Notes: generated by a model not told the origin, from the letters alone. DNA of 63,016 bases, filler included, from Craspedostauros australis (GCA_030167865.1; 12 parts of 12 records of this genome joined end to end with filler, not necessarily neighbours in it); one strand, 5' to 3'; shown: positions 15,336 to 35,466, counted from the whole stretch's first letter. Program-made: numbers and translations.

Positions 15336-15611
15336 CAGGTCCTCTTGATCCCATTTGAGCACACCCTGACATGCATGATACTGCGGCAGCAAGCTCCAAA
15401 ATGATTGGAAGTTGCTGGCCATAGTCTTTCTCGCATTGATCATCATTTTCTGGACCGTGGTGGGATGCACGTCGTAGCGCGCTGCCAGATGATCAAGCAC
15501 CCCATCCTTGCAACAGCCATCGGCTTGCGACAGCAAGAGCGTCACCAAGATCCGAATCCGTCCGTCTGTAGATATGCGTTTCCTCTTCTTGCGTTCCATT
15601 GATTCCATCAT
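15336..15611 (-). mobile_element. N-terminal HTH fragment of a mariner-like transposase (plant/stramenopile type)
   Basis: RKRISTDGRIRILVTLL..DG..KDGVLDHLAARYDVHPTTVQKM resembles this family's HTH; runs into the contig edge. Confidence 0.6.
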
Positions 15612-15876
15612 CTAGATGACACTTGTGACAACAAGTACATGAAGGGCTCTTGTCCGAAGCTACATACTGAGGAATTGGCAAGGTACATCATGGAGTCCGT
15701 CGATGACAACAAGTCGGAAAGAAACGAGCAAGTTCCAGCATGCAACGCACAACATTCACTAATTGGATGCATACAAGAGCATTGAATGAACGCAACTACA
15801 ATGTGGCAAGCCCTGTAAGATTGGGCACCTTGATAGTGGTGGCAGCTATATTCGTCATGTAATAGCCTAATTCAGT

Positions 15877-16470
15877 ATGGATTGCGATGCTGTAATTGCG
15901 ATGAAGATGTGCAGCAGGGCACTCCCAAAAATGATGACTCGCAGGCCGCGACGAGCTGGGCCGTTGTCTGCTCACGAAGCTTGCATCAACCCATATGATC
16001 ACCACGAACAGAAAGGAGACAAATTGAACAAAGGTCTGATACGAAGATGGAGGTATGTCATTGAGCAACGAGGAGAAACGAAGTCATATGATGACGTCGT
16101 ATTGCGACACCGCGCAGACAAAAAGGAGTCTGTTGACGACGTGATTGCGAGCCTGCGGCACTCGACAATTGTTGTGGGAAATGACTGTGACATGGTTTAC
16201 CGCAGCTTCTATGCTAACCCTCCACCGTTAAACATAGTCCAAGCCCATGTCGCACAGCACACTCATACGAATGGAGTAGTACTCTACTTCGACAAGCCCG
16301 CTCTGTGCGAGCCGTGTCAAATGGTTAATCCCGAAACCGGCAGTGTGCGAGGCTTTTCTCACCAATTCGTGTCAGCAGACACCACACGAATCCAACTCGG
16401 CAGCCCAAAAATGACCAACTCAGCAAAGGCGAAGCGACGATCAACCACCTGCAAACATGAAATAATATGA
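15877..16470 (+). CDS. Hypothetical ORF (197 aa), possibly repeat-derived
   Basis: Open frame with no recognisable family; a near-identical copy at 17467-17871 is interrupted. Confidence 0.3.
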   Translation: MDCDAVIAMKMCSRALPKMMTRRPRRAGPLSAHEACINPYDHHEQKGDKLNKGLIRRWRYVIEQRGETKSYDDVVLRHRADKKESVDDVIASLRHSTIVVGNDCDMVYRSFYANPPPLNIVQAHVAQHTHTNGVVLYFDKPALCEPCQMVNPETGSVRGFSHQFVSADTTRIQLGSPKMTNSAKAKRRSTTCKHEII

Positions 16471-16925
16471 TGTTGCCGTAACCCCCATTTATATTGTGTT
16501 CACGAATCACAGTTCCTGAGGTAACAAACATCGGCACAGCGATGGACGTGTGACTTGGTGTGCTAGCAACACATCCCAGAACGACTGTGCATTCGAGGTG
16601 GGAAAGCTCAATGATTGCTGGAGCTTTGTGCGTCTTGCCTCTTCCTGCTTTGTCCAGTCTTTGACGTTGTCGCCACGATCGTTACTTCAATGAGTGCGAG
16701 CACTGATTGGTAGAGAGCTGACACCATATCCCACCATGACGGAGTGTTGAAGACAGGGGAAATGAGAACAGTGGACACGGATTTGGTGATTCAATTTCTT
16801 CCTGTGATGGGTGTCTGGCCTGTGTNNNNNNNNNNNNNNNNNNNNNNNNNNNNNNNNNNNNNNNNNNNNTTAATTAATTAANNNNNNNNNNNNNNNNNNN
16901 NNNNNNNNNNNNNNNNNNNNNNNNN

Positions 16926-17871
16926 CAGGTCCTCTTGATCCCATTTGAGCACACCCTGACATGCATGATACTGCGGCAGCAAGCTCCAAAATGATTGGAA
17001 GTTGCTGGCCATAGTCTTTCTCGCATTGATCATCATTTTCTGGACCGTGGTGGGATGCACGTCGTAGCGCGCTGCCAGATGATCAAGCACCCCATCCTTG
17101 CAACAGCCATCGGCTTGCGACAGCAAGAGCGTCACCAAGATCCGAATCCGTCCGTCTGTAGATATGCGTTTCCTCTTCTTGCGTTCCATTGATTCCATCA
17201 TCTAGATGACACTTGTGACAACAAGTACATGAAGGGCTCTTGTCCGAAGCTACATACTGAGGAATTGGCAAGGTACATCATGGAGTCCGTCGATGACAAC
17301 AAGTCGGAAAGAAACGAGCAAGTTCCAGCATGCAACGCACAACATTCACTAATTGGATGCATACAAGAGCATTGAATGAACGCAACTACAATGTGGCAAG
17401 CCCTGTAAGATTGGGCACCTTGATAGTGGTGGCAGCTATATTCGTCATGTAATAGCCTAATTCAGTATGGATTGCGATGCTGTAATTGCGATGAAGATGT
17501 GCAGCAGGGCACTCCCAAAAATGATGACTCGCAGGCCGCGACGAGCTGGGCCGTTGTCTGCTCACGAAGCTTGCATCAACCCATATGATCACCACGAACA
17601 GAAAGGAGACAAATTGAACAAAGGTCTGATACGAAGATGGAGGTATGTCATTGAGCAACGAGGAGAAACGAAGTCATATGATGACGTCGTATTGCGACAC
17701 CGTGCAGACAAAAAGGAGTCTGTTGACGACGTGATTGCGAGCCTGCGGCACTCGACAACTGTTGTGGGAAATGAGTGTGACATGGTTTACCGCAGCTTCT
17801 ATTTTAACCCTCTACCGTTAAACATAGTCCAAGCCCATGTCGCACAGCACACTCGTACGAATGGAGCAGCA
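16926..17871 (+). repeat. Near-identical copy of 15336-16281, including the mariner HTH fragment at 16926-17201 (-)
   Basis: Same first base; identical to ~17700, then scattered substitutions; abrupt loss of similarity after 17871. Confidence 0.9.
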
Positions 17872-18040
17872 AGGCACGGGAAATTCGCCGAAACACGACT
17901 ACGAACGTCATCGACTACTACGACCATTTGCTGTGGACAGCCGAAGCCATGGCATCCTTCGACTCAATCGATCAACACATTGGTTAGTACATAACGTCTA
18001 TAACGGTAATATTTCAAAAAGAGAACTCCAATCACATGTA

Positions 18041-18260
18041 ATTGATTCGATGAAACTAACAACGTTCCAACGAAACTAACAATGACTCGACGAAACTAAT
18101 GATGATTCGATGGAACTAATAACGTTTCGACGAAACTAACAACGACTCGACGAAACTAATGATGATTCGATGGAACTAATAACGTTTCGATGGAACTAAT
18201 AACGTTTCGACGAAACTAACAATGTTTCGATGAAACTAATGACGTCTCAATGAAACTAAT
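18041..18260 (+). repeat. Tandem array, 11 x 20 bp (consensus ~AAYGWYTCGAYGRAACTAAY)
   Basis: Exact 20-nt periodicity with no indels; differences are mostly transitions. Confidence 0.95.
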
Positions 18261-18499
18261 GCTGGACCAAGACTGAATGAGGAAACCAAGACTCAGAAAA
18301 TCTTGTCAAGACTCAACGTCAGCCACTGCAACGGAACGCAATGAATCATTGTTCCAAAACAATGACAACATGATGAACATCAACACGCAGCCAAGCACTC
18401 GCCATCCCCGTCACATCACTCCGCTTCGCAGCCGACTACTCGAACAGGAGACGGAGAACAAGAACCAGCCCACGCATTCAACCAAACAACGACAACGAT

Positions 18500-19430
18500 C
18501 AGCCAAGCATGCAATGCAGAGGCAGACCAGCAAGGCAACTGATCAACCGAACTACCAGTAAAGGCAATCAGTCAAGAATGGAGCAGAAGGGCAAGCCCGT
18601 GAGGCGACTGGCCAACCAAGCAACCAGCAAGGCAACCAACCAACCAGCCAGCCGATGCAGGCAATCAACCAAATTTGCGACGGAGGGGCAAACCAGCAAG
18701 GCAGCCAACCAACCAAGCGATCAGCCAAGTCAATCACTCAACCAATGCAGGCAACCAGAAAAGCGCACAGCCGAGGAGCAGGCCAGCGAAGCAGCCAACC
18801 AACCAAGCAATCAGCCAAGCCAATCAACCAACATGAAACGAAGGGGAAGGCCTGCGAGGCAACCAGGCAACCAACCAACCACCAAGGCAACCAACCAACC
18901 AGCCGATGCAGGCAATCAAACAAATGTACAATGGAGGGGCAGGCCAGCAAGGCAACCAGCCAACCGAGCAACCAGCAAGGCAACCAATCAACCAACCGAT
19001 ACGGGCAACCAGAAAGGCGCGCAGCCGAGGAGCAGGCCAGTGAAGCAGCCAACCAACCAAGCAATCAGCCAAGCCAATCAACCAAACATGAAACGAAGGG
19101 GAAGGCCTGCGAGGCAACCAGGCAACCAACCAACCACCAAGGCAACCAACCAACCAGCCAATGCAGGCAATCAAACAAATGTACAATGGAGGGGCAGGCC
19201 AGCAAGGCAACCAGCCAACCGAGCAACCAGCCAACCCAATCAACCAACTGATACGGGCAACCAGAAAAGCGCGCAGCCGAGGAGCAGGCCAGCGAAGCGA
19301 CCAACCAACCAAGTGATCAGCCAACCCAATCAACCAACCCAATCAACCAATCGACCAAATATGCAACGAAGGGGAAGGCCTGCAAGGCAACCAACCAACC
19401 AAGGTATGAGCCAAGGCAATCAACAAGATG
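18500..19430 (+). repeat. CAAC-rich hierarchical repeat: ~85-bp subunits in a 255-bp higher-order unit
   Basis: ATG(A/C)AACGAAGGGGAAGGCCTGC recurs at 18833, 19088 and 19361. Confidence 0.9.
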
Positions 19431-20453
19431 ATCACTTCATCAATCAGCCACCCCACAACGAAGCATCCAACAACACAACTGAAATTGACTTCTTGTCAAG
19501 TGCTGATATTCTGGAGCTTGGGTTGCAATATGCTGGCTTTCGGCAAACCAAAATGGCAGAACGGACCAAACAGAATCGATTTTCAGCAATGTACGGCTTG
19601 AGTCCAGAGAGCTTTGGCTGCCTCTTTGTTAATCTATTCAACATCAAGACAGCACACAAACTCAAGAACCCGCGACCCTATGATACATTTGTTGTTCTGA
19701 ACTGGCTCAAAGCCTACAGTAGGGAGCATGCCATGGCAGGGCGTTGGGGCTTGGATGAGAAGACAATCCGGTCTCTCATCTGGTCATACTTACCAGCGAT
19801 CCAAGCCTTGCTTCCAAGAAAGGTAAGTCACTGTGCACACTTCGATGCCACTTTGCTTCATATTCTATCCTGACACAGTCTTCTGCTGCACTTCGTTTCT
19901 TTTTATTTCCTTCTCTCAGGTCATCTGGCCTCCACAAAATATAAAGCTCACTGCGGACGACAAGCACTTCCTCATCAGCGTCGATGGCGTCCACATCAAG
20001 ATTCATGAACCAAGAACAGACCCCAGGACGAAGTGGTATAGCCACAAGTCGCACTTGGCAGGGCTCACCTATGAGCTTGGAATCTCGCTAGCAGACAGCA
20101 AGCTTGTCTGGATCAATGGTCCCTTCCCTGCTTCTACATCAGATCTGGTGATGTATCGCAAACCTGATGGCCTCAAAAGCAAACTGCCATCAGGAGGAAT
20201 GGTCATTGCCGATGGTGGCTATCAAAACGAGCCAACCATCAGTGCACCAAACCCGATGGATTCTGCTGCGGTGAAGAAATTCAAGAACAGGGCAAGAGCT
20301 CGACACGAGAGCTTCAATGGAAGGATCAAGAACTTCAAGGCTCTTGTCCACGATTATAGAAACGATCTTGGCAAACATCAGTGTGTCTTCGAAGCCTGCT
20401 GTGTATTGATACAGTACGAATTAGATAATGGTCATCCTATATTCGAAATTTAA
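18509..20453 (+). CDS. DDE_Tnp_4-type (IS5/Harbinger-like) transposase; exons 18509-19822 and 19920-20453; alternative start 19406
   Basis: HTH-like region LNWLKAY..AGRWGLDEKTIR; catalytic motifs ISVDG, YSHK, WINGPFPA..SD, IADGGY, RARHESFNGRIKNF. A GTAAGT..CTCAG intron joins the exons in frame. Confidence 0.88.
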
Positions 20454-20534: not shown

Positions 20535-22468
20535 CTAAGAGAAGTAGGCATTGAGAGGATCATCTTCATCAAAGTCATGGGCAGATGGCTCCTCCGGGTT
20601 CGATTGATCAAGAGCTGCATCCTCTGCAGGCTTCAACTTCTTTGGTGAGCATACGCCGATGTCCGAAATCGCACGCTTGAGGTGATGCCCTTCATCACCC
20701 ATGATGGTATCGTTGCCGCGAACCGCGAGGGCATTTGGAGCGGGAGGAACAGAACAAGCAATAGGTTCGCGGACGAGGGTTGGTGTAGCCATGGCCAAGG
20801 CAAGTTGGTTTGGAGCAGGAGTATCCAACATGGATGCTGGAACATCCGGAAAGTTGAGCCCATCGAAGCCGTCTTGACCGGGGAGAGGGACTTGCAATGC
20901 GGACCCTGGAGCGTCTGGGAAGGTCATCTCACCCGCATTCGCACCATGGATCGTCGGGTTAGTGTGTGGTGGGCTTGGAATGTTCACCACTCCGAACTTG
21001 CTGTTGGTCTTTGGAGCGGTTGGAGCGTTCACCACTTCAGAGATTCTGTTGATCTTTGGAGGGACTATCACGCATGCCACTCCTGTTCCTGGCAGGGGCG
21101 TGCTGCTGCTGTTGCTGCTCGAAGGGACTGTGGATGGGGTGGGAGAGCTGTCGACGTCCATCTTGTCCGTGCCGCCTGTTTTGATAGTCAGGTTTGCTAC
21201 ATCATCAATTGCTCGGACACAGAATGGCGAAAGGAGAGAAGATGATAGGTGAAATGATAGTGAGTACTCTAGAGTAGTGCGGATTAGATGTGATTGCATC
21301 ATGATCGATGGCCAAACAAGTCAATTGAATTGGGATGCTTCCATGGCTACTCACCAGTGCTAGAAAGCATCCCAAAGAATGCATCATCGACGTTGTCGGT
21401 GTTGGGGTTGCACAGCCCAACCTTGCCATGAAATCCAGCGATTGCAACTCTCCAGCACACCACATTTGTCGGGATCTTGAGCTGGGCATTCGTTGCCTTG
21501 TGGACCAACACCTTTGGTGTTGGACAGTACGTCTTGGTGAGGCACTCAACTTCATTCTGGAAGAAGTTAGCACTCAGGGTCATTCCATCTGGGCAATGGA
21601 AGTAGGTGTACTTGAGGCCAACTCCCTTTGTGGTTTCACGGTTAACCAGCTTATGGAAAAGGAGCTTCTCGCGTGCGAGATTGCCATCAGGAACTCCCTT
21701 TTGCTGCATGAACATTGCATCTGTGCTAGTTTCCAGCATCAACGATGGGATGGCTGGCTCTTGGATCTTGATGCAGGTACCTTCGTCACAGATGGATGCT
21801 TTGATCTGATCAATGTCATCCTTGTCGACAAACAGCTTGCGGATGATGAGGCAGTCGAAAGATCTGCCCTCCTGGATGACATCATCCATCTGGTAGATCA
21901 TCGTGTTCTCCACATGATGGAATGGATGGTCAAGGTCAATGCTGTAGTGCTCGCCTTCTTCGTTGTTGGAGATGGTGGTGCTGGTTTCGTCGTTGGTCGT
22001 CATCTTGGCTTCGGTGGAAAAGAGAATCTTGCGGCGTCGCTGTGGCGAGAGTGTGGATGTTGATGTTGATGCCGTTGTCGAGGTTGATGGTGTTGTGAGG
22101 GTCTTCGATTTTGATTTGGCAGGGGGCGTTGATGCCCATGGTGCATTGGGATCGCTTTCACCCAATGCCTGTCGCTGCACCTTGTGCAATGCCTGCAGCC
22201 CTGCCTTGTCGAGATACTTTTGAAGATAGTATTTGCGTTTTCTGCAAGCTTCTCGCTGTGCAGAACCGGCCTTGCCGAGGAGATGTTCAAATTGATCGCA
22301 GTGCAGCTTGAATTTATCGAAGCGCTTTGCACCAAGGAGGAAGTCCAAGATGGCGATGTCGACTTCCGGTCCCATCGATTTCAAATTTGAGCGGGAGGAA
22401 GGCAGTTTGCGGATGGCACGCTGAGCTGGAGTGCTGGGCGTGGTGTTGGTGGTGGTTGGTTTGTTCAT
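20535..22468 (-). CDS. Transposon partner protein (~590 aa); exons 22468-21355 and 21211 (or 21196)-20535
   Basis: Phase-1 GTGAG donor with two in-frame AG acceptors; basic helical N-domain, beta-rich middle domain, Pro-rich tail. Confidence 0.75.
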
Positions 22469-22538
22469 GGTAGTTGAGATTCAATGAGGGACAGACTACT
22501 ACCGAACACGGTATCAACCCAATGGGAGAAATTCCTGT

Positions 22539-22550
22539 TTTGGCGCGAAA
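22539..22550 (-). promoter_or_regulatory. Overlapping double E2F-type site TTTCGCGCCAAA
   Basis: Matches TTTSSCGC on both strands; ~70 nt upstream of ATG 22468. Confidence 0.5.
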
Positions 22551-22970
22551 TCTTCCGACTTGATTGACCACCAAATCTTTTCTCCTCCTTTCTCTCCTCC
22601 ATTCACGAATCCGTCATGACTCAAACCTGACCGACTTGACTCACACCCCACCTGGGAACTATATGCTCTTCAGATCCTCCTTACTAAAACATACCTCGAT
22701 TCCTTCATTGCTGATGACCATCACACTACCACCGTGGTCTCAGCATGCGTATCCAACTTGCTTCAACTCAAGCAATGGAATCCGAATGTCAGCTTCAGCC
22801 ACAGCCACTGCTTCATGACCGTCATCACTGATTGTCATGACCTACACTGCAGTGTAACTACATGTGCGGANNNNNNNNNNNNNNNNNNNNNNNNNNNNNN
22901 NNNNNNNNNNNNNNTTAATTAATTAANNNNNNNNNNNNNNNNNNNNNNNNNNNNNNNNNNNNNNNNNNNN

Positions 22971-24116
22971 GAGTTGCAGCAACTACAGCATGCCCAGGCC
23001 AACTCCAACGAACCCTTGTTCGATCAGTCTTTCCTGGATGAGAACTTCGATCTCGTCATCGAGCTCGGGCTTCATTTGCTCAACATGCAAATGCGCTACT
23101 ACGCACCAATCGTGCCGCCCTCGAATCGCCAGAAAGCGCCAATCCGAATCGAACATCTTTCGGAGATGCAGGCCATCACCCACTTTCGCTTCCGAAAGTG
23201 TGCCCTCCAAAGCATGCTGGGATGCCTTTGGCCCAAGTTCGAGGAAGTGTCTGGCGCAACATCCTCCGAGGCCATCACCTGCCAATATGGATACAGTGTG
23301 CCCTTCGAAACAGGCATGCTCTACATGTTGTATCGCCTGGCGCATCGGGGCACTCTGGGTGACATGGAGGTTGTCTTCGGAGTCGGGAATTCTAAATTAT
23401 CCGCTGTGATTCTTACCTTCTGCGGCCATTTCCACGACATCGCCCGTCCCTACTTCGATAACATGCAGACATTTGCGCATCGTTTCGAGATGTATGCTGA
23501 TTATGTTGAGAGAGCGACTGATGGGATCGTGGACAACGTCGTCGGCTTCATTGATGGAACGTTGCGAAAAACGTGTCGCCCACACATTTATCAGGAGTTC
23601 GCATACTCCGGCCACAAGCGATGTCACGGCATCAAATATCAAGGAGTGTCGGCTCCGGATGGATTGATGATGCACTTCTACGGACCCATTGCTGGGAATC
23701 GCCATGATGGTTTCATGCTGAAGGAGAGCCGAATCGAAGAGCAAATGGAAGACATGATGCCATTGGATGGCCCAAACAAAATCTACCGCCTGTACGGGGA
23801 TCCAGCGTATGCCAACCGTGTGTATGTGTTCGGTGGTTTCAGCAATGTCGTTCGCGGATCACCTGAAGCTATCGTCAACAGGGAGATGTCTGCGGTGCGC
23901 ATCTGCGTCGAGTGGCAGTTCAAGGAAATCGTGAAGCTCTTCCCTTTGTTGGATGTAACCAAGCTGATGCGCATCTACGGCAGTCCACTCACGCATATGT
24001 ACTACACTGCTGCGTTCTTCATGAATCTGCACTGCACTGTGTATGGTAATCAACAGTCTGCAAGGTACGATTTGAACAAGATGAGTATGGAGGAGTACCT
24101 CCTCCTCGTGCCATAG
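22971..24116 (+). CDS. HARBI1-type DDE transposase, 5'-truncated
   Basis: GFIDGT, YSGHKRCHGIKYQ, YGPIAGNRHD, LYGDPAY, NREMSAVRICVEWQF. Confidence 0.93.
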   Translation, partial: ELQQLQHAQANSNEPLFDQSFLDENFDLVIELGLHLLNMQMRYYAPIVPPSNRQKAPIRIEHLSEMQAITHFRFRKCALQSMLGCLWPKFEEVSGATSSEAITCQYGYSVPFETGMLYMLYRLAHRGTLGDMEVVFGVGNSKLSAVILTFCGHFHDIARPYFDNMQTFAHRFEMYADYVERATDGIVDNVVGFIDGTLRKTCRPHIYQEFAYSGHKRCHGIKYQGVSAPDGLMMHFYGPIAGNRHDGFMLKESRIEEQMEDMMPLDGPNKIYRLYGDPAYANRVYVFGGFSNVVRGSPEAIVNREMSAVRICVEWQFKEIVKLFPLLDVTKLMRIYGSPLTHMYYTAAFFMNLHCTVYGNQQSARYDLNKMSMEEYLLLVP

Positions 24117-24404
24117 CTATAATACAAATAGAAATCAGACTATTGGAAAACATCTGCTATTCTATGCCATGCTATATTATACCGATGTGCCACCTCTTCA
24201 TATTCTTATGTTGCATGTGCATGTGGTGGATACGTGCATGATGGCGTCTATCAGTGGGTGTATGTAAAATTACTCGTTACCGTGTGTTTCTGTTTTGAAT
24301 TCGCGCGTGTGTGCTCTACTCTATCGCAGGATTACTACGAGAATCGCACACAGATGAGTTGTACAGCAAATTCGTTGATGTGTGTGTGCTATTTGTTGAT
24401 TACA

Positions 24405-25805
24405 TTATTTTGTGTCACTGCCGGAATCTCTGTCTTCGAAGAACTTGGTCATCGCATGGAGCATGGAGTGGAGGCCGTGGGTCAATGCGGCCTGCTGCTC
24501 TGTCTGCGCGCGCTCCTGTCGGCGAGCTTCCTCCATTTGTCGTTCGTGCCGGCGACGATTCTGCTCCCACTCGAGCTGCTGCAAATTGAAGATGCGCCTC
24601 CTTTCATCAAACTCGCGTTGCTCTCGCTCCACTTGTTGTTGGGATGCAAGCCGCTGCTGGCGTGACAGGTCATCAAGTTGGCGCGACAAGCATTCATCAT
24701 ACTTACCTCTCTTTGCATTTGCCATCCAGCTTGTCTCCAACTGCTTGTTCCTCGATTCCAATAGGCGCTGAACGATGTCTGCAGTTTTTTTCGTATCTTC
24801 CCACAGGTCGAGTTGCTTTGCCTTCTTCGTGTTGGAAGGCTTGGAATCGTCGTCAGCAGCGTTTGGTTTGTTGCTGGTGAGGGATGTCTTGGACCTCTTT
24901 CCAAGCATGGCTGCACGGAAGTCTGCCGCCGCGGCTTTCATTTTCTTTTCCCGAACTGTGGCCTGCTTCTTGGTGTTCTTGAAGCTGCTGTAGTGCTGAT
25001 GAAGGGTGAGGAGTTTGTGGAGATGTGGTGTGGATGGCTCACCATCATCTCCCGTTCTCTTCGGAGCGCTGCGCTCGAACTCCACAGTTTCTGCCATCAG
25101 TGTCTCAAACCGATATTGGTACCGAGTCTTTTTGCATGTGGACTTTGTTGGCTTGTACATGCTGGGATGGACAGCTTCGAGCTTGCTAGCCACCTCCATC
25201 CAGCTCGCACCAATGTCCTTCTCCCAAGGCTTGCTGTCCATCCCCATCAGATGGTCGATGAGGATGACATCGGATGTTTTGGGATTTTGAAACCATGGAT
25301 ACTCAGGTTTGAGTATCCATTTCGATGAGGACGTGGCCTTGCGCCCGGCTGTCTTGGGTTTGATGGAGCGGGCGAGGTGCGGCTTGCCATCCTCAACCTT
25401 CGGCTGCTTGGACGGGGTCTTCATGGCCCGCTCTGCCGCTGTCTCCACCCCAACAACAACAACATCAGGAGGGTTGATTGTTGCTGATGATGTTCCCAGG
25501 AAGGAGCGCGTGGTGGATACGAAGGGTGGAGACTTCAGGGTGTTGGTGGCAGCAACCCCCATCACGTCGGCCTGTGTGGGCTGCCATAGCGGGCCCTGCC
25601 GAATGATGAGTGGGCGAGGAGACCGTGGCGAGACGGCAGCTCTGCTGCTCCCACTTGCATGTGGATGATCCGAAGTGATCGCATGGCGATGGTACGATGC
25701 TGCGGCGTTGGAGTGGTGGGGGATGGTGGTGAGGTTGCCACCGTCTGTGTTGTCGTCCTCATCGGAGGACGCGATGTACGAGTGTGGAGGCGGACCTGTG
25801 CTCAT
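24405..25805 (-). CDS. Harbinger partner protein (466 aa): Myb/SANT-like domain + C-terminal coiled coil
   Basis: DVILIDHL..KPW..WMEVASKLE..RYQYRFETLM; E/R/Q-rich tail; convergent with the transposase. Confidence 0.8.
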   Translation of the reverse strand: MSTGPPPHSYIASSDEDDNTDGGNLTTIPHHSNAAASYHRHAITSDHPHASGSSRAAVSPRSPRPLIIRQGPLWQPTQADVMGVAATNTLKSPPFVSTTRSFLGTSSATINPPDVVVVGVETAAERAMKTPSKQPKVEDGKPHLARSIKPKTAGRKATSSSKWILKPEYPWFQNPKTSDVILIDHLMGMDSKPWEKDIGASWMEVASKLEAVHPSMYKPTKSTCKKTRYQYRFETLMAETVEFERSAPKRTGDDGEPSTPHLHKLLTLHQHYSSFKNTKKQATVREKKMKAAAADFRAAMLGKRSKTSLTSNKPNAADDDSKPSNTKKAKQLDLWEDTKKTADIVQRLLESRNKQLETSWMANAKRGKYDECLSRQLDDLSRQQRLASQQQVEREQREFDERRRIFNLQQLEWEQNRRRHERQMEEARRQERAQTEQQAALTHGLHSMLHAMTKFFEDRDSGSDTK

Positions 25806-26742
25806 GGCGCGAGGAGGGAGATGGCGCAATGGATGGGATTGTGGGATGTGATGGAGGGAGAAGCAAGATGGCGTTCACAACACGATCGGCAGAGCAGAGA
25901 GGAGAGTGTGTGATCACGACTCATGCCTGTGAGAAGGGAAATTCCGACGCTGAGGTCGCCAACTCCCGATCGGTGCGTTGGAGATGAGAACAGGAGGAAC
26001 AAGAATGACGTCACGAGGAGGACTAGTAGGAATCAGGATGCACTCCAAATAAGCAGATTTGATTGGTGGACCTTTGAGATGTGTATGGACTACGCGTGGA
26101 GGCAAATACTTCACGGGACACAAGGTATTTCGGGATCTTCCTCCAACCCGAAAAAAAGAGCCCCAGATGGCCATTTCCCGAAACTATTTTTGGGCATGGC
26201 TGGCTCGAAATGTCGCAGTATTGGGTTATGAGTTGTCCGTGTGATTTAATTTTAGGATTTCAGGAAGTCTCTAATGTGTGGCAACAGTGTTGCTGGGGAA
26301 CACGGTAATTTGTCCACTCACGACTCCATGAGCTCGTGATTGAGATGAATCGAGTCGTGCCTGACAATGTAGTCCCTGTCTGCCGTTGAAGTTGCGCGCC
26401 GGGCATGCCTGATTCCAGAGCTTCGCCCTTGACCTGGGCGATTCGCAATCTTGTGATTGGTTGGTGGTAAGGTTGGCTTGTGCAAACGAGTATCATTTTC
26501 GTGTCGTTTGGCGAACGGGCGTGGTGCCCAACACGAGCTTTCGAGAACTACGACATGTCGCATGCTGTCAATTCGGACAGATGTGTTCTTCTTTTTTGGA
26601 TAACTCACGATTTCGTGTCACATACACATAATGTGCTAGCTATTTCGATTATATCTGAAATGTCCCACAACCAATGCAGCATTGTGTGTAAAAATATACG
26701 TAGCACCAGTACCAAATTTAGCTTGTTTGAGTTTGTGCGTCG

Positions 26743-26830: not shown

Positions 26831-26930
26831 NNNNNNNNNNNNNNNNNNNNNNNNNNNNNNNNNNNNNNNNNNNNTTAATTAATTAANNNNNNNNNNNNNN
26901 NNNNNNNNNNNNNNNNNNNNNNNNNNNNNN

Positions 26931-28317
26931 GCCTCCACACTCGTACATCGCGTCCTCCGATGAGGACGACAACACAGACGGTGGCAACCTCACCACCATC
27001 CCCCACCACTCCAACGCCGCAGCATCGTACCATCGCCATGCGATCACTTCGGATCATCCACATGCAAGTGGGAGCAGCAGAGCTGCCGTCTCGCCACGGT
27101 CTCCTCGCCCACTCATCATTCGGCAGGGCCCGCTATGGCAGCCCACACAGGCCGACGTGATGGGGGTTGCTGCCACCAACACCCTGAAGTCTCCACCCTT
27201 CGTATCCACCACGCGCTCCTTCCTGGGAACATCATCAGCAACAATCAACCCTCCTGATGTTGTTGTTGTTGGGGTGGAGACAGCGGCAGAGCGGGCCATG
27301 AAGACCCCGTCCAAGCAGCCGAAGGTTGAGGATGGCAAGCCGCACCTCGCCCGCTCCATCAAACCCAAGACAGCCGGGCGCAAGGCCACGTCCTCATCGA
27401 AATGGATACTCAAACCTGAGTATCCATGGTTTCAAAATCCCAAAACATCCGATGTCATCCTCATCGACCATCTGATGGGGATGGACAGCAAGCCTTGGGA
27501 GAAGGACATTGGTGCGAGCTGGATGGAGGTGGCTAGCAAGCTCGAAGCTGTCCATCCCAGCATGTACAAGCCAACAAAGTCCACATGCAAAAAGACTCGG
27601 TACCAATATCGGTTTGAGACACTGATGGCAGAAACTGTGGAGTTCGAGCGCAGCGCTCCGAAGAGAACGGGAGATGATGGTGAGCCATCCACACCACATC
27701 TCCACAAACTCCTCACCCTTCATCAGCACTACAGCAGCTTCAAGAACACCAAGAAGCAGGCCACAGTTCGGGAAAAGAAAATGAAAGCCGCGGCGGCAGA
27801 CTTCCGTGCAGCCATGCTTGGAAAGAGGTCCAAGACATCCCTCACCAGCAACAAACCAAACGCTGCTGACGACGATTCCAAGCCTTCCAACACGAAGAAG
27901 GCAAAGCAACTCGACCTGTGGGAAGATACGAAAAAAACTGCAGACATCGTTCAGCGCCTATTGGAATCGAGGAACAAGCAGTTGGAGACAAGCTGGATGG
28001 CAAATGCAAAGAGAGGTAAGTATGATGAATGCTTGTCGCGCCAACTTGATGACCTGTCACGCCAGCAGCGGCTTGCATCCCAACAACAAGTGGAGCGAGA
28101 GCAACGCGAGTTTGATGAAAGGAGGCGCATCTTCAATTTGCAGCAGCTCGAGTGGGAGCAGAATCGTCGCCGGCACGAACGACAAATGGAGGAAGCTCGC
28201 CGACAGGAGCGCGCGCAGACAGAGCAGCAGGCCGCATTGACCCACGGCCTCCACTCCATGCTCCATGCGATGACCAAGTTCTTCGAAGACAGAGATTCCG
28301 GCAGTGACACAAAATAA
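26931..28317 (+). CDS. Harbinger Myb/SANT-like partner, 5'-truncated
   Basis: Translation identical to 24405-25805 over the shared part. Confidence 0.8.
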
Positions 28318-28605
28318 TGTAATCAACAAATAGCACACACACATCAACGAATTTGCTGTACAACTCATCTGTGTGCGATTCTCGTAGTAATCCTGCGATA
28401 GAGTAGAGCACACACGCGCGAATTCAAAACAGAAACACACGGTAACGAGTAATTTTACATACACCCACTGATAGACGCCATCATGCACGTATCCACCACA
28501 TGCACATGCAACATAAGAATATGAAGAGGTGGCACATCGGTATAATATAGCATGGCATAGAATAGCAGATGTTTTCCAATAGTCTGATTTCTATTTGTAT
28601 TATAG

Positions 28606-29832
28606 CTATGGCACGAGGAGGAGGTACTCCTCCATACTCATCTTGTTCAAATCGTACCTTGCAGACTGTTGATTACCATACACAGTGCAGTGCAGATTCA
28701 TGAAGAACGCAGCAGTGTAGTACATATGCGTGAGTGGACTGCCGTAGATGCGCATCAGCTTGGTTACATCCAACAAAGGGAAGAGCTTCACGATTTCCTT
28801 GAACTGCCACTCGACGCAGATGCGCACCGCAGACATCTCCCTGTTGACGATAGCTTCAGGTGATCCGCGAACGACATTGCTGAAACCACCGAACACATAC
28901 ACACGGTTGGCATACGCTGGATCCCCGTACAGGCGGTAGATTTTGTTTGGGCCATCCAATGGCATCATGTCTTCCATTTGCTCTTCGATTCGGCTCTCCT
29001 TCAGCATGAAACCATCATGGCGATTCCCAGCAATGGGTCCGTAGAAGTGCATCATCAATCCATCCGGAGCCGACACTCCTTGATATTTGATGCCGTGACA
29101 TCGCTTGTGGCCGGAGTATGCGAACTCCTGATAAATGTGTGGGCGACACGTTTTTCGCAACGTTCCATCAATGAAGCCGACGACGTTGTCCACGATCCCA
29201 TCAGTCGCTCTCTCAACATAATCAGCATACATCTCGAAACGATGCGCAAATGTCTGCATGTTATCGAAGTAGGGACGGGCGATGTCGTGGAAATGGCCGC
29301 AGAAGGTAAGAATCACAGCGGATAATTTAGAATTCCCGACTCCGAAGACAACCTCCATGTCACCCAGAGTGCCCCGATGCGCCAGGCGATACAACATGTA
29401 GAGCATGCCTGTTTCGAAGGGCACACTGTATCCATATTGGCAGGTGATGGCCTCGGAGGATGTTGCGCCAGACACTTCCTCGAACTTGGGCCAAAGGCAT
29501 CCCAGCATGCTTTGGAGGGCACACTTTCGGAAGCGAAAGTGGGTGATGGCCTGCATCTCCGAAAGATGTTCGATTCGGATTGGCGCTTTCTGGCGATTCG
29601 AGGGCGGCACGATTGGTGCGTAGTAGCGCATTTGCATGTTGAGCAAATGAAGCCCGAGCTCGATGACGAGATCGAAGTTCTCATCCAGGAAAGACTGATC
29701 GAACAAGGGTTCGTTGGAGTTGGCCTGGGCATGCTGTAGTTGCTGCAACTCATCGGCGAAAGTGATGAATGCGATCCTTGCCTGCTTGCAAGCTTCCCGC
29801 TCAGGAAGACAGTTCCAAGTCCTCTTCCCCAT
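28606..29832 (-). CDS. HARBI1-type DDE transposase, full length (408 aa from MGKRTW)
   Basis: Intact DDE motifs; this ATG is shared with copy 3 while the upstream sequence diverges. Confidence 0.93.
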   Translation of the reverse strand: MGKRTWNCLPEREACKQARIAFITFADELQQLQHAQANSNEPLFDQSFLDENFDLVIELGLHLLNMQMRYYAPIVPPSNRQKAPIRIEHLSEMQAITHFRFRKCALQSMLGCLWPKFEEVSGATSSEAITCQYGYSVPFETGMLYMLYRLAHRGTLGDMEVVFGVGNSKLSAVILTFCGHFHDIARPYFDNMQTFAHRFEMYADYVERATDGIVDNVVGFIDGTLRKTCRPHIYQEFAYSGHKRCHGIKYQGVSAPDGLMMHFYGPIAGNRHDGFMLKESRIEEQMEDMMPLDGPNKIYRLYGDPAYANRVYVFGGFSNVVRGSPEAIVNREMSAVRICVEWQFKEIVKLFPLLDVTKLMRIYGSPLTHMYYTAAFFMNLHCTVYGNQQSARYDLNKMSMEEYLLLVP

Positions 29833-30712
29833 TGCAATCGGATGGTGTCTGTACATGTGGGAGGGACAAGATCAATGATGTACACGAGGAGGTATGCAGC
29901 AAGGTTGGAGGTATAAACGAGTCAACAACCCAACGGCAACGCCTCCGACGCAGATGAATGAAACAGATGAGACGGGCACAGCTCAGGGATGCCGATGCCG
30001 ATGTGACGAACAAAATGTGACGGTCGGTTGGATGAATGAGAAAAAGGAGCACAGGAACCATTTAGAAAAATACGTTTTCCTTTCTAGTCTTGCTTACGAC
30101 CCTCTTGATTCTAATATTAGTTCACGGTCGGTGACGTCGGTCATATTTCGGGCCGTTGCTATCAGACGTTATTGATAGTCACAGTGCGTGTCGTTTCGGG
30201 AAACTGGTTTCGGGTTTCAGGAAGTCTCTATGGCCCCATTCAGGATAGAATCGTACGTTTTTGCGGATTTGACATCGTAACACGTGATATTTTTAGAACA
30301 TGATTTTTCGTGTTGTCCATTAGGGTTAGATATATTTAGCTAGCTTCTACGACACAAATACCTGGCTGACTTGTCTTCGCCGCGGACAGAATTGATGACG
30401 TCTTTGACGGTCGATATCAGACGGCAATGGAATCCAATGTTGTGGATGGTGACGTTGTCGCAGATTCGGTGTTGCCTTGATTCCTTGCGTTGTTGGTGAT
30501 TTGGTTCTGTTGTGTGCTTCCTCGTTTGTGTGTGTGTTGTGTCAAACAGCACAGCGTTGGTGGTAGCGTCCCTGCACGTCCATGTTCACAGCAACAGCAA
30601 CACTTGCGAATANNNNNNNNNNNNNNNNNNNNNNNNNNNNNNNNNNNNNNNNNNNNTTAATTAATTAANNNNNNNNNNNNNNNNNNNNNNNNNNNNNNNN
30701 NNNNNNNNNNNN

Positions 30713-32099
30713 GCCTCCACACTCGTACATCGCGTCCTCCGATGAGGACGACAACACAGACGGTGGCAACCTCACCACCATCCCCCACCACTCCAACGCC
30801 GCAGCATCGTACCATCGCCATGCGATCACTTCGGATCATCCACATGCAAGTGGGAGCAGCAGAGCTGCCGTCTCGCCACGGTCTCCTCGCCCACTCATCA
30901 TTCGGCAGGGCCCGCTATGGCAGCCCACACAGGCCGACGTGATGGGGGTTGCTGCCACCAACACCCTGAAGTCTCCACCCTTCGTATCCACCACGCGCTC
31001 CTTCCTGGGAACATCATCAGCAACAATCAACCCTCCTGATGTTGTTGTTGTTGGGGTGGAGACAGCGGCAGAGCGGGCCATGAAGACCCCGTCCAAGCAG
31101 CCGAAGGTTGAGGATGGCAAGCCGCACCTCGCCCGCTCCATCAAACCCAAGACAGCCGGGCGCAAGGCCACGTCCTCATCGAAATGGATACTCAAACCTG
31201 AGTATCCATGGTTTCAAAATCCCAAAACATCCGATGTCATCCTCATCGACCATCTGATGGGGATGGACAGCAAGCCTTGGGAGAAGGACATTGGTGCGAG
31301 CTGGATGGAGGTGGCTAGCAAGCTCGAAGCTGTCCATCCCAGCATGTACAAGCCAACAAAGTCCACATGCAAAAAGACTCGGTACCAATATCGGTTTGAG
31401 ACACTGATGGCAGAAACTGTGGAGTTCGAGCGCAGCGCTCCGAAGAGAACGGGAGATGATGGTGAGCCATCCACACCACATCTCCACAAACTCCTCACCC
31501 TTCATCAGCACTACAGCAGCTTCAAGAACACCAAGAAGCAGGCCACAGTTCGGGAAAAGAAAATGAAAGCCGCGGCGGCAGACTTCCGTGCAGCCATGCT
31601 TGGAAAGAGGTCCAAGACATCCCTCACCAGCAACAAACCAAACGCTGCTGACGACGATTCCAAGCCTTCCAACACGAAGAAGGCAAAGCAACTCGACCTG
31701 TGGGAAGATACGAAAAAAACTGCAGACATCGTTCAGCGCCTATTGGAATCGAGGAACAAGCAGTTGGAGACAAGCTGGATGGCAAATGCAAAGAGAGGTA
31801 AGTATGATGAATGCTTGTCGCGCCAACTTGATGACCTGTCACGCCAGCAGCGGCTTGCATCCCAACAACAAGTGGAGCGAGAGCAACGCGAGTTTGATGA
31901 AAGGAGGCGCATCTTCAATTTGCAGCAGCTCGAGTGGGAGCAGAATCGTCGCCGGCACGAACGACAAATGGAGGAAGCTCGCCGACAGGAGCGCGCGCAG
32001 ACAGAGCAGCAGGCCGCATTGACCCACGGCCTCCACTCCATGCTCCATGCGATGACCAAGTTCTTCGAAGACAGAGATTCCGGCAGTGACACAAAATAA
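30713..32099 (+). CDS. Harbinger Myb/SANT-like partner, 5'-truncated
   Basis: Translation identical to the other copies. Confidence 0.8.
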
Positions 32100-32387
32100 T
32101 GTAATCAACAAATAGCACACACACATCAACGAATTTGCTGTACAACTCATCTGTGTGCGATTCTCGTAGTAATCCTGCGATAGAGTAGAGCACACACGCG
32201 CGAATTCAAAACAGAAACACACGGTAACGAGTAATTTTACATACACCCACTGATAGACGCCATCATGCACGTATCCACCACATGCACATGCAACATAAGA
32301 ATATGAAGAGGTGGCACATCGGTATAATATAGCATGGCATAGAATAGCAGATGTTTTCCAATAGTCTGATTTCTATTTGTATTATAG

Positions 32388-33614
32388 CTATGGCACGAGG
32401 AGGAGGTACTCCTCCATACTCATCTTGTTCAAATCGTACCTTGCAGACTGTTGATTACCATACACAGTGCAGTGCAGATTCATGAAGAACGCAGCAGTGT
32501 AGTACATATGCGTGAGTGGACTGCCGTAGATGCGCATCAGCTTGGTTACATCCAACAAAGGGAAGAGCTTCACGATTTCCTTGAACTGCCACTCGACGCA
32601 GATGCGCACCGCAGACATCTCCCTGTTGACGATAGCTTCAGGTGATCCGCGAACGACATTGCTGAAACCACCGAACACATACACACGGTTGGCATACGCT
32701 GGATCCCCGTACAGGCGGTAGATTTTGTTTGGGCCATCCAATGGCATCATGTCTTCCATTTGCTCTTCGATTCGGCTCTCCTTCAGCATGAAACCATCAT
32801 GGCGATTCCCAGCAATGGGTCCGTAGAAGTGCATCATCAATCCATCCGGAGCCGACACTCCTTGATATTTGATGCCGTGACATCGCTTGTGGCCGGAGTA
32901 TGCGAACTCCTGATAAATGTGTGGGCGACACGTTTTTCGCAACGTTCCATCAATGAAGCCGACGACGTTGTCCACGATCCCATCAGTCGCTCTCTCAACA
33001 TAATCAGCATACATCTCGAAACGATGCGCAAATGTCTGCATGTTATCGAAGTAGGGACGGGCGATGTCGTGGAAATGGCCGCAGAAGGTAAGAATCACAG
33101 CGGATAATTTAGAATTCCCGACTCCGAAGACAACCTCCATGTCACCCAGAGTGCCCCGATGCGCCAGGCGATACAACATGTAGAGCATGCCTGTTTCGAA
33201 GGGCACACTGTATCCATATTGGCAGGTGATGGCCTCGGAGGATGTTGCGCCAGACACTTCCTCGAACTTGGGCCAAAGGCATCCCAGCATGCTTTGGAGG
33301 GCACACTTTCGGAAGCGAAAGTGGGTGATGGCCTGCATCTCCGAAAGATGTTCGATTCGGATTGGCGCTTTCTGGCGATTCGAGGGCGGCACGATTGGTG
33401 CGTAGTAGCGCATTTGCATGTTGAGCAAATGAAGCCCGAGCTCGATGACGAGATCGAAGTTCTCATCCAGGAAAGACTGATCGAACAAGGGTTCGTTGGA
33501 GTTGGCCTGGGCATGCTGTAGTTGCTGCAACTCGTCGGCGAAAGTGATGAATGCGATCCTTGCCTGCTTGCAAGCTTCCCGCTCAGGAAGACAGTTCCAA
33601 CTCCTCTTTCCCAT
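32388..33614 (-). CDS. HARBI1-type DDE transposase, full length (408 aa from MGKRSW)
   Basis: Intact DDE motifs as in copies 1 and 2. Confidence 0.93.
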   Translation of the reverse strand: MGKRSWNCLPEREACKQARIAFITFADELQQLQHAQANSNEPLFDQSFLDENFDLVIELGLHLLNMQMRYYAPIVPPSNRQKAPIRIEHLSEMQAITHFRFRKCALQSMLGCLWPKFEEVSGATSSEAITCQYGYSVPFETGMLYMLYRLAHRGTLGDMEVVFGVGNSKLSAVILTFCGHFHDIARPYFDNMQTFAHRFEMYADYVERATDGIVDNVVGFIDGTLRKTCRPHIYQEFAYSGHKRCHGIKYQGVSAPDGLMMHFYGPIAGNRHDGFMLKESRIEEQMEDMMPLDGPNKIYRLYGDPAYANRVYVFGGFSNVVRGSPEAIVNREMSAVRICVEWQFKEIVKLFPLLDVTKLMRIYGSPLTHMYYTAAFFMNLHCTVYGNQQSARYDLNKMSMEEYLLLVP

Positions 33615-35466
33615 TGCGATTGGACGGTCTATGTAGATGTGGAAGGACGAAGTCGAATGATGTACAGGAGGAGGCATGCAGTGCGGGTGGAGGTAACGAC
33701 ACAGCGACAAATTCAACGGCAACGCCTCCGACGCAGATGAATGAAACAGATGAGACGGGCACAGCTCAGGGATGCCGATGCCGATGTGACGAACAAAATG
33801 TGGCGGCCGGTTGGATGAATGAGACAAAGCAGCACAGGAACCATTTAGAAAAATACCTTTTCCTTTCTAGTCTTGCTTACGACCCTCTTGATTCTAATAT
33901 TAGTTCACGGTCGGTGACGTCGGTCATGTTTTGGGCCGTTACTTTCAGACGTTATTGATAGTCACAGTGCGTGTCGTTTCGGGAAACTGGTTTCGGGTTT
34001 CAGGTTGTCTCTATTGTGGTGCGAACCGATGTGTTCCTCACATGCCATTACCAGTTCCTTACATCCTGATATCATCCATTGTGGCTTCGTTCATTGTATT
34101 GCATTGTAGTTGATTATGGTTGATTACTTCTGCAATAGCGTTTCAGTTCTACTCCAGAATACTGTACACCAGCAACAGTCTTGGCAACAGCAACTTGGAT
34201 GTATGTGTATCGTTGCATCCATCGTGCTTGGGGGAGCAATGATCCCTTGGTTAGCGGCAGCACACAAGAGCAGTCCAGAATAGAGCAGAGTAGGTTGTTT
34301 CACACCGAGGAGTTCAATCTCGCCATGCTCTGACCGCTCTTCATTGGATTCTCCGCATCGGTGAGCCTGTGTAACTGCGCTGCGCATAATTTCCACGCAA
34401 TGTGCGCGCATTTTAGCATGTATCGCGTGCGCAATGTAGATGCCAGTGTTCGATTGGCCATAGTTGCGCTGGAGATTAGTAGAGAACATGAGGCTTCCTC
34501 CACAGAACAGTTCGAACGCGATTTGATGGAGCACGAACAGCGACTGCGTCAACGACTTCACCCATGGCATGAGTGTAAAATCAATGGCTAGTCTTCGCGA
34601 GAGCATAGCAACCAGCGTCAATGAAGACAGTTGTGGCGCGTGAGTAGGAAGCGGTGTTTCCTCGCGAGGATAGTACGCGGTAAAGTGACGAAAAGAACTT
34701 GCAGTTGATATATCTTTGGAGGAAGTGAGGTTCGAAGACCGAGACTACACGGGAAGGTGCAGGGGAGGATTTTGCGTCAATTGAAAGCAACGGCACGATG
34801 ATCCGACGTCGGGCTGATCCACAACCTTGCATAAAGTAGAGAGACTCAGGTGAGCGGCACAGTACGAATCTACAACACGTAAACACGCACGATAATTTTT
34901 GGCGCGAACTTTTGTGCGTTCACGGATCGATGATCATGGCTGTCACGAGCATTAGTGACTGACTTCAAACACCCAAAGCAACACACAAAAGCAATCTGGA
35001 CCGCTGACCAGCACACCACCCGAAGCAGAATGAAGCGACGAATACAGCCGTGCCATTCACTTGAGCAATAGACGAAACAGAATTGGATGCGGGTCTTTGG
35101 AAGGCAGTCGGTCGAGATTGGACGAAGAAGCAACAAGTTGCTGTACCAGAATGCTGTAGACTCTACGCAGTTACCAATGGCTACCAACGAAAAAAATCCG
35201 AAATCACGTCCGTACGTCGTCCGTATGACAAAGGTCGATAAAGGGTTAAAACAGGCATCAAGATGAACATGAAGCGGAGACCGCTTGCCAACAATGAACA
35301 CATCAACAGAGAGCTATCACTCTCTTCTTTCTAATGATGCAAAGATGTCAGGCAACGGCCATCAACTCATCGAATGGCAGCTTGTGCCGTCGGCGATATG
35401 CCAATGGTTTCCAATGATTACCAAAAAGTGCCAATAAACCGGAAATTAACCAATAGGCACGGGGTG

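Follow-up and report, generated by a model that had tools for sequence, protein, structure and literature searches.

Among eukaryotic DNA transposons, the elements of the Harbinger superfamily (PHIS) are the textbook example of dependence on a second protein. According to the survey in PMC4482050, most PHIS groups need such a second protein, which is a Myb/SANT protein or, in ISL2EU, a YqaJ-domain protein; the superfamily thus offers a precedent for a partner that is not Myb-like. In canonical elements the Myb-like protein attaches to the ends of the transposon, and through the N-terminal end of the transposase it also binds and imports that enzyme (Sinzelle 2008, summarised in PMC9392472). 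Harbinger gene pairs have repeatedly been domesticated (PMC5339849, PMC9392472). In the Arabidopsis IDM complex, HDP1 and HDP2 co-purify with IDM2 and IDM3, proteins with an alpha-crystallin domain (ACD), and the same report found no direct binding of HDP1/2 to IDM2/3 in its yeast two-hybrid or split-luciferase assays (PMC5339849).

Here we describe a 63,016-nucleotide stretch of DNA from Craspedostauros australis (GCA_030167865.1), hereafter the window, in which a gene that we call P0001 lies tail to tail with an intact transposase of the Harbinger superfamily. An earlier note on this DNA had presented the gene as the partner of the transposase, with a possible HSP20/alpha-crystallin-like domain, and had pointed to the plant IDM complex, correctly described with regard to the published co-purification. 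The observation proved largely right: the guess at the fold is supported by the predicted structure, and the assignment to HSP20 at the sequence level is unsupported. That P0001 is the accessory second gene of the adjacent transposon, standing in the place of the Myb/SANT protein, has in our judgement only slightly less than an even chance.

P0001 belongs to a small unannotated protein family

The window is composed of short contigs (about 1.2-25 kb) concatenated via N44-TTAATTAATTAA-N44 spacers, so that gene neighbourhood across a spacer carries no meaning; the P0001 gene and the transposase both lie on the contig at 16926-22870. The remaining contigs hold ordinary eukaryotic genes for a mitochondrial carrier, ankyrin-repeat proteins and an EDRF1-like protein. 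The open reading frame (ORF) of P0001 is unbroken over 373 codons, from the ATG at 22468 to the TAG at 21349-21347 on the minus strand, and its product of 373 amino acids contains both peptides quoted in the earlier note (FKLHCDQFEHLLGKAGSAQREACRKRKYYLQK at residues 53-84, and LIIRKLFVDKDDIDQIKASICDEGTCIKIQEP at residues 207-238 with YFHCP at 289-293). The gene and the parts of its product are as follows.

21350..22468, minus strand: complete ORF of P0001 (or its exon 1), from an ORF scan, 17 distant relatives and their end-to-end alignment
22157..22393, minus strand: N-terminal helical domain, residues 26-104, a putative nucleic-acid-binding module (AlphaFold2 local confidence, pLDDT, 85-95; hhalign)
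21959..22156, minus strand: Ser/Thr/Pro-rich linker, residues 105-170, predicted to be disordered (pLDDT below 50 over 108-169; poorly conserved columns)
21425..21958, minus strand: C-terminal beta-sandwich domain, residues 171-348, with a predicted HSP20/CS-like fold (AlphaFold2 model)
21617..21751, minus strand: helical insert (residues 240-284) that separates main strands four and five of the sandwich (AlphaFold2; conserved in the family alignment)

No Pfam family matches P0001, and NCBIfam likewise returned nothing. Searched exhaustively with phmmer, 1.84 billion representatives yielded 17 distant relatives at E≤1e-3, of which three were at E≤1e-10 and none at 1e-30. The family alignment was built from P0001 and 16 of these 17, the repeat protein P0002 being left out. 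Most relatives align with P0001 over its full length, at about 18-25% identity, and the alignment displays two conserved blocks with a variable Ser/Thr/Pro-rich linker between them. Since the relatives align over both domains, P0001 is a real protein and a member of a small unannotated eukaryotic two-domain family. A word-based search with P0001, run on proteins of 205-653 residues, gave 0 matches at E≤0.01, and the same search with alignment A1 recovered P0006 and P0019 only. The clusters of the relatives are small: the 10 that were examined have 1-3 member sequences each, and each listed protein occurs on 1-3 contigs. No locus of a relative was found in metagenome (searched with P0001 and P0006), genome (P0001 and the subgroup alignment A4) or viral contigs (A4 and P0001), and a scan of viral contigs with the transposase gave no locus either. 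The name that JGI automatically gave to one relative, P0007, is 'predicted RNA-binding protein with TRAM domain'; since Pfam finds TRAM in none of the 18 family members, it looks like an automatic mis-annotation.

The N-terminal domain resembles DUF7083

In the AlphaFold2 (AF2) prediction residues 30-100 make up a small helical domain (pLDDT 85-95), and residues 30-105 contain 15 Lys/Arg, 9 Asp/Glu and no Trp, the sole Trp residues of P0001 being W111 and W339. The basic helical N-terminal domain lacking the Trp-based Myb pattern, as read earlier from the sequence, was thus borne out. No Myb-type Pfam match was found in P0001. The rows of the structure search were filled by the C-terminal domain, and the N-terminal domain may still have a Myb-like fold.

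The closest link to an annotated family runs through P0002, a protein of 800 amino acids in which an RNase H1 N-terminal (Cauli_VI) domain precedes five DUF7083-type repeats in tandem. P0001 matches P0002 over five stretches (phmmer E 1.1e-14), and its residues 26-104 align with one of the repeats (residues 239-316 of P0002) with an hhalign probability of 98.3% and E 2.6e-14. P0002 itself matches Pfam DUF7083 (PF23309) at E 1.9e-10 and 41.1 bits, with a cut-off of 27; its Cauli_VI-type match, at E 8.4e-4 and 20 bits, falls just below the cut-off of 21. A direct search with P0001 gave no DUF7083 match at E≤1, and 1 of the 18 family members gave a weak one (E 0.14). By this profile-level homology to P0002, the N-terminal domain of P0001 is classed as DUF7083-like. 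The architecture of P0002, together with the basic charge of the domain, suggests nucleic-acid binding. P0002 is the sole hint at the function of this domain family; DUF7083 has no function on record, and a search of a library of open-access full texts found no paper naming it.

The C-terminal domain is predicted to fold as an ACD/CS-like beta-sandwich

From the single sequence, AF2 predicted a long N-terminal helix only, with pLDDT below 35 in the C-terminal half. Given the 18-sequence alignment A2, the strands of residues ~171-348 reached pLDDT of about 80-92, and the five models agreed with each other (mean pLDDT 65.9-66.9; predicted TM-score, pTM, 0.45). The earlier note had seen in the middle segment an echo of the pattern of small heat-shock proteins (sHSPs), and the order of secondary-structure elements fits that motif alignment, with strand LIIRKLF, short helix DKDDIDQ, strand KASI, strand CIKIQEP, the helical insert and strand LKYTYFH. 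Helices at 242-245, 248-256 and 262-280 interrupt the sandwich, and we take the place of this insert (residues 240-284) to be that of the beta6 loop of sHSPs. Absence of an HSP20/CS-type sandwich from the predicted structure had been named as grounds for abandoning the idea; the model contains such a sandwich, with the helical insert. It shows the compact seven- to eight-stranded beta-sandwich of an ACD and, equally, the seven-stranded sandwich without beta6 loop of a CS domain.

A VIA-align scan of 48,161 representative chains, which does not depend on Foldseek, placed an sHSP ACD or a CS domain of the p23/NudC/Shq1/Sgt1 kind in all 34 top rows and in 41 of the best 50, with Z from 8.2 down to 6.0. 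Tight fits were the ACD of Sulfolobus solfataricus Hsp20.1 (root-mean-square deviation, rmsd, 2.5 Å over 80 of 87 residues) and the CS domain of Shq1 (2.4 Å, 81 of 99); the alignments span residues 186-348 of P0001 yet pair only about 80 of them. A second structural look gave 5.9 vs 3.9 for unrelated rows, a clear gap. These models support an ACD/CS-type fold for the C-terminal domain, and at these structural scores ACD and CS are indistinguishable.

Sequence methods gave a different picture, and their results weigh against membership in either family. None of the 18 family members matches Pfam HSP20 (PF00011) or CS (PF04969) at E≤1, and hhalign assigned 0.1% to a comparison with a narrow IbpA profile and 0.4% to one with a 19-sequence profile of bacterial and phage HSP20 (number of effective sequences, Neff, 4.8). 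A sequence search of the PDB produced one unrelated match only (E 2.8). sHSPs carry a conserved AxxxNGVL motif and a C-terminal IxI anchoring motif; neither was seen by eye in the family alignment. Hence of the HSP20/alpha-crystallin-like domain first suggested the predicted fold stands and the kinship in sequence does not, and in the absence of a sequence-profile signal the domain is to be called HSP20/CS-like in fold and not a demonstrated member of either family.

The same silence of the profiles could mean that the domain is a generic beta-sandwich or an artefact of the model, its likeness to HSP20 and CS domains being without meaning. Foldseek against the PDB found no match at E≤1e-3, its listed rows contain no sHSP, the alignment behind the model holds 18 sequences only with the pTM given above, and the ESM Atlas returned no usable match for the whole of P0001 and, for residues 168-350, nothing but PARP rows at chance level (0.80). 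An artefact would nevertheless have to account for a single superfamily holding the top 34 rows of the VIA-align scan at such close superposition, for the gap to the unrelated rows and for the concurrence of all five AF2 models, and we regard it as unlikely.

The neighbouring transposase and its surroundings

The transposase reads on the plus strand, towards the P0001 gene. The features of its side of the contig are listed below.

19427..19822, plus strand: transposase exon 1, unique part upstream of the catalytic core (ORF 18377-19873; donor AAG|GTAAGT at 19823)
19823..19919, plus strand: transposase intron of 97 nt, GTAAGT...CAG, phase 0
19920..20453, plus strand: transposase exon 2, DDE_Tnp_4 core, stop TAA at 20451-20453 (Pfam E 2.1e-15)
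18509..19426, plus strand: repetitive N-terminal extension, in frame with exon 1, with six RGRP (AT-hook-like) motifs (translation; repeat scan)
18046..18260, plus strand: array of 10.8 copies of the 20-bp unit TTCGATGAAACTAATAACGT, a possible subterminal repeat (tandem-repeat scan)
17866..17867, no strand: end of the match to the neighbouring contig, a possible left boundary of an insertion (contig comparison)

The claimed convergence with a DDE transposase was borne out: the DDE_Tnp_4 match lies in exon 2, after the phase-0 intron, where it covers 19920-20450 and positions 1-157 of the 158 of the profile, and the ORF is intact across the intron. The candidate catalytic triad presumably lies in VDGVH, ADGGY and RHESFNG, as picked out by eye. 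The N-terminal extension is built of a 255-bp tandem repeat (2.9 copies), and its RGRP motifs begin at 18518, 18842, 18935, 19097, 19190 and 19370; if translated, the extension would equip the transposase with a minor-groove DNA-binding array of its own. A plus-strand ORF at 20649-21245 was considered as a 3' exon of the transposase and rejected, since its codon score is negative and the scored stretch (20538-21212) contains one in-frame stop.

To the left, two neighbouring contigs share their first 944 bp at 99% identity (15336-16279 and 16926-17869) and diverge after AATGGAG; the continuation of the left one (16280-16825) does not recur before 22870. This pair could be allelic, with and without an insertion of 5 kb or more that carries both genes, and it could equally reflect a repeat shared by two loci. 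An ORF crossing the breakpoint (15871-16470; 17461-17994) ends differently in the two contigs. The 20-bp array lies ~180 bp to the right of the 17866/17867 breakpoint and has no inverted counterpart up to the end of the contig. Subterminal repeats often lie close inside transposon ends.

The window contains a second, very different Harbinger family, present three times (22923-25874, 26887-29871 and 30669-33866). Here a DDE_Tnp_4 transposase (E 8e-13) is convergent with a 489-codon Trp-rich ORF without a Pfam match, which is most likely a classical Myb-like partner. The transposases of the two families share 25% identity, over 61 amino acids only.

P0001 as a candidate second gene of the transposon

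The role of Harbinger partner is assigned to P0001 because of its position only. P0001 occupies the position and orientation of the Trp-rich partner in the second Harbinger family, P0001 and the transposase both lie in the sequence that the sister contig lacks, and an inspection of ORFs and Pfam matches in the ~5 kb to the right of the 17867 breakpoint revealed no Myb-like ORF that might serve as partner instead. Co-folding of the transposase exon products (as separate chains) with residues 30-350 of P0001 gave 0.37, as compared with 0.00-0.01 when the partner was replaced and 0.26 in the control with chain 2 replaced, a result that speaks neither for nor against binding. Several points weigh against a partner role. 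The linkage of P0001 to the transposase is a single instance, with no second copy in the window, and the scans for relatives, having given no locus, offer no genomic context for them. The ordinary genes of the window make a host gene beside a transposon unremarkable. With its six RGRP motifs as a possible DNA-binding array of its own, the transposase might need no partner. No terminal inverted repeats (TIRs) were found by an inverted-repeat scan, and when the putative left end was aligned with 22469-22870 the best match scored 16, as compared with a mean of 16.9 for shuffled sequence. The right end of the element is out of view and may lie outside the contig, which stops at 22870, 400 bp past the start codon of P0001.

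P0001 may therefore be a host gene of a lineage-restricted family, a chance neighbour of a Harbinger insertion without any role in transposition, and this we hold to be a serious candidate, though short of even odds; such a protein might be a nuclear adaptor or a co-chaperone-like protein. The adjacency known once only, the normal genes on the other contigs and the failure to find TIRs around the gene pair all agree with it, as do the small clusters of the relatives, which show no swarm of near-identical copies as for a high-copy repeat, and the natural C-terminus and conserved two-domain layout of the family, which resemble a stable cellular protein. A chance neighbour does not explain why P0001 matches the partner gene of the other Harbinger family in place and orientation, or why the stretch missing from the sister contig covers both genes, and it would leave an intact transposase with no other partner ORF right of 17867, which would be non-autonomous if this lineage, like most PHIS groups, needs a second protein. 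Alternatively, transposase and P0001 could be a co-domesticated, immobile pair, comparable to HDP1/HDP2 or HARBI1/NAIF1. Both ORFs are intact, no TIRs and, within the window, no extra copies were found, and Harbinger gene pairs have taken this path repeatedly. Domesticated HDP1 has, however, lost the catalytic triad (PMC5339849), whereas the candidate catalytic residues here look intact by eye; moreover, the contig pair suggests a presence/absence polymorphism, and the element looks young, to judge by its repetitive N-terminal extension and tandem arrays. Co-domestication appears very improbable to us.

If P0001 is indeed the accessory second gene, an analogy with the Myb-like protein would make it a part of the transposon that binds both DNA and transposase. 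Its DUF7083-type N-terminal domain would bind the element DNA, perhaps at the 20-bp subterminal repeats, and its beta-sandwich would be the protein-binding adaptor, which would hold the transposase or bring a chaperone, for example Hsp90, to it. CS domains serve Hsp90 as co-chaperone modules. The two jobs of the Myb-like protein, end binding and transposase binding or import, would then be split over two unrelated domains. In its widest form the proposal is that a Harbinger lineage swapped its Myb/SANT helper for a fusion of a DUF7083 and an ACD/CS-like domain and so brought along a co-chaperone-like factor of its own for assembly or anti-silencing, which would parallel the IDM association within a transposon; this we offer as a tentative and rather doubtful extension.

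If the partner role is true, the two jobs of a transposition helper can sit on unrelated domains, DUF7083 gains its first functional context, and a testable tie emerges between Harbinger proteins and proteins of the alpha-crystallin fold, which already occur together in Arabidopsis anti-silencing. In a library of open-access full texts we found no paper on a transposon-encoded ACD accessory protein. Should the link to the transposon fail, what remains is a two-domain family, so far unannotated, whose predicted HSP20/CS-like fold escapes sequence methods.

A candidate second exon downstream of P0001

The earlier note had described P0001 as an intact spliced gene. The ORF is intact, as shown above; splicing of the gene is a possible candidate only. 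The features in question are two.

21349..21354, minus strand: candidate splice donor GTGAGT (CTG|GTGAGT), overlapping the stop codon, phase 1 (sequence inspection)
20535..21268, minus strand: candidate second exon or separate downstream ORF, stop at 20535-20537 (codon score, acceptors)

In favour of splicing, the donor in which the stop codon is embedded fits the consensus, four in-phase AG acceptors were found (21268, 21211, 21196 and 21175), and the minus-strand ORF 20535-21320 has a codon-usage score of +0.185 bits per codon vs 0.288 for exon 1, the other five frames being negative. The second exon thus looks coding-like and splice-compatible. Its product would lengthen P0001 by about 225-245 residues and would be of low complexity and Pro/Ser-rich with an acidic end, and it has no Pfam match. 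Against splicing, the C-termini of the relatives lie ~0-20 residues from the exon-1 stop, just past the conserved terminal motif, and the candidate second exon has no counterpart among the relatives in the family alignment. Within it, a 45-bp unit is repeated 1.9 times at 20975-21061 (minus strand), so that a peptide of 15 residues is duplicated in the Pro/Ser-rich tail.

Relation to described systems

With its predicted beta-sandwich P0001 was compared with the ACDs of S. solfataricus Hsp20.1 (4rzk), wheat Hsp16.9 (1gme) and Schizosaccharomyces pombe Hsp16.0 (3w1z), and with the CS domains of Shq1 (3eud/4pck), Sgt1 (2xcm/9q8o), PIH1D1 (6gxz), p23 (1ejf) and NudC (3qor). It differs from the sHSPs by a helical insert of ~45 residues at what is presumably the place of the beta6 loop, and the sandwich, which in sHSPs follows an N-terminal arm, is preceded by a helical domain and a long linker. 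The insert likewise sets it apart from CS domains, as does the Pfam CS profile (0 of 18 members).

The locus shares with the IDM complex the presence of Harbinger-type and ACD-fold proteins in one unit, which in the case of P0001 means gene adjacency and a predicted fold. In contrast to the IDM proteins, which are separate host proteins, P0001 fuses a DNA-binding-like with an ACD/CS-like domain and stands beside an apparently intact transposase; the two cases are alike without demonstrated homology. The resemblance to a Myb/SANT (trihelix) ORF1 lies in the arrangement, a second gene that encodes a small basic helical domain and stands beside a DDE_Tnp_4 transposase. P0001 is distinguished from such proteins by the lack of the three conserved aromatic residues and of a Pfam Myb match and by its extra folded domain, and its comparison with the Trp-rich Harbinger partner of the window gave an hhalign probability of 0.2%. 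Among PHIS elements with a non-Myb second gene, the YqaJ-domain partner of the ISL2EU type is a nuclease, while P0001 has no enzyme-like domain; as an instance of an exchangeable second gene, ISL2EU (PMC4482050) provides a precedent for the arrangement proposed here.

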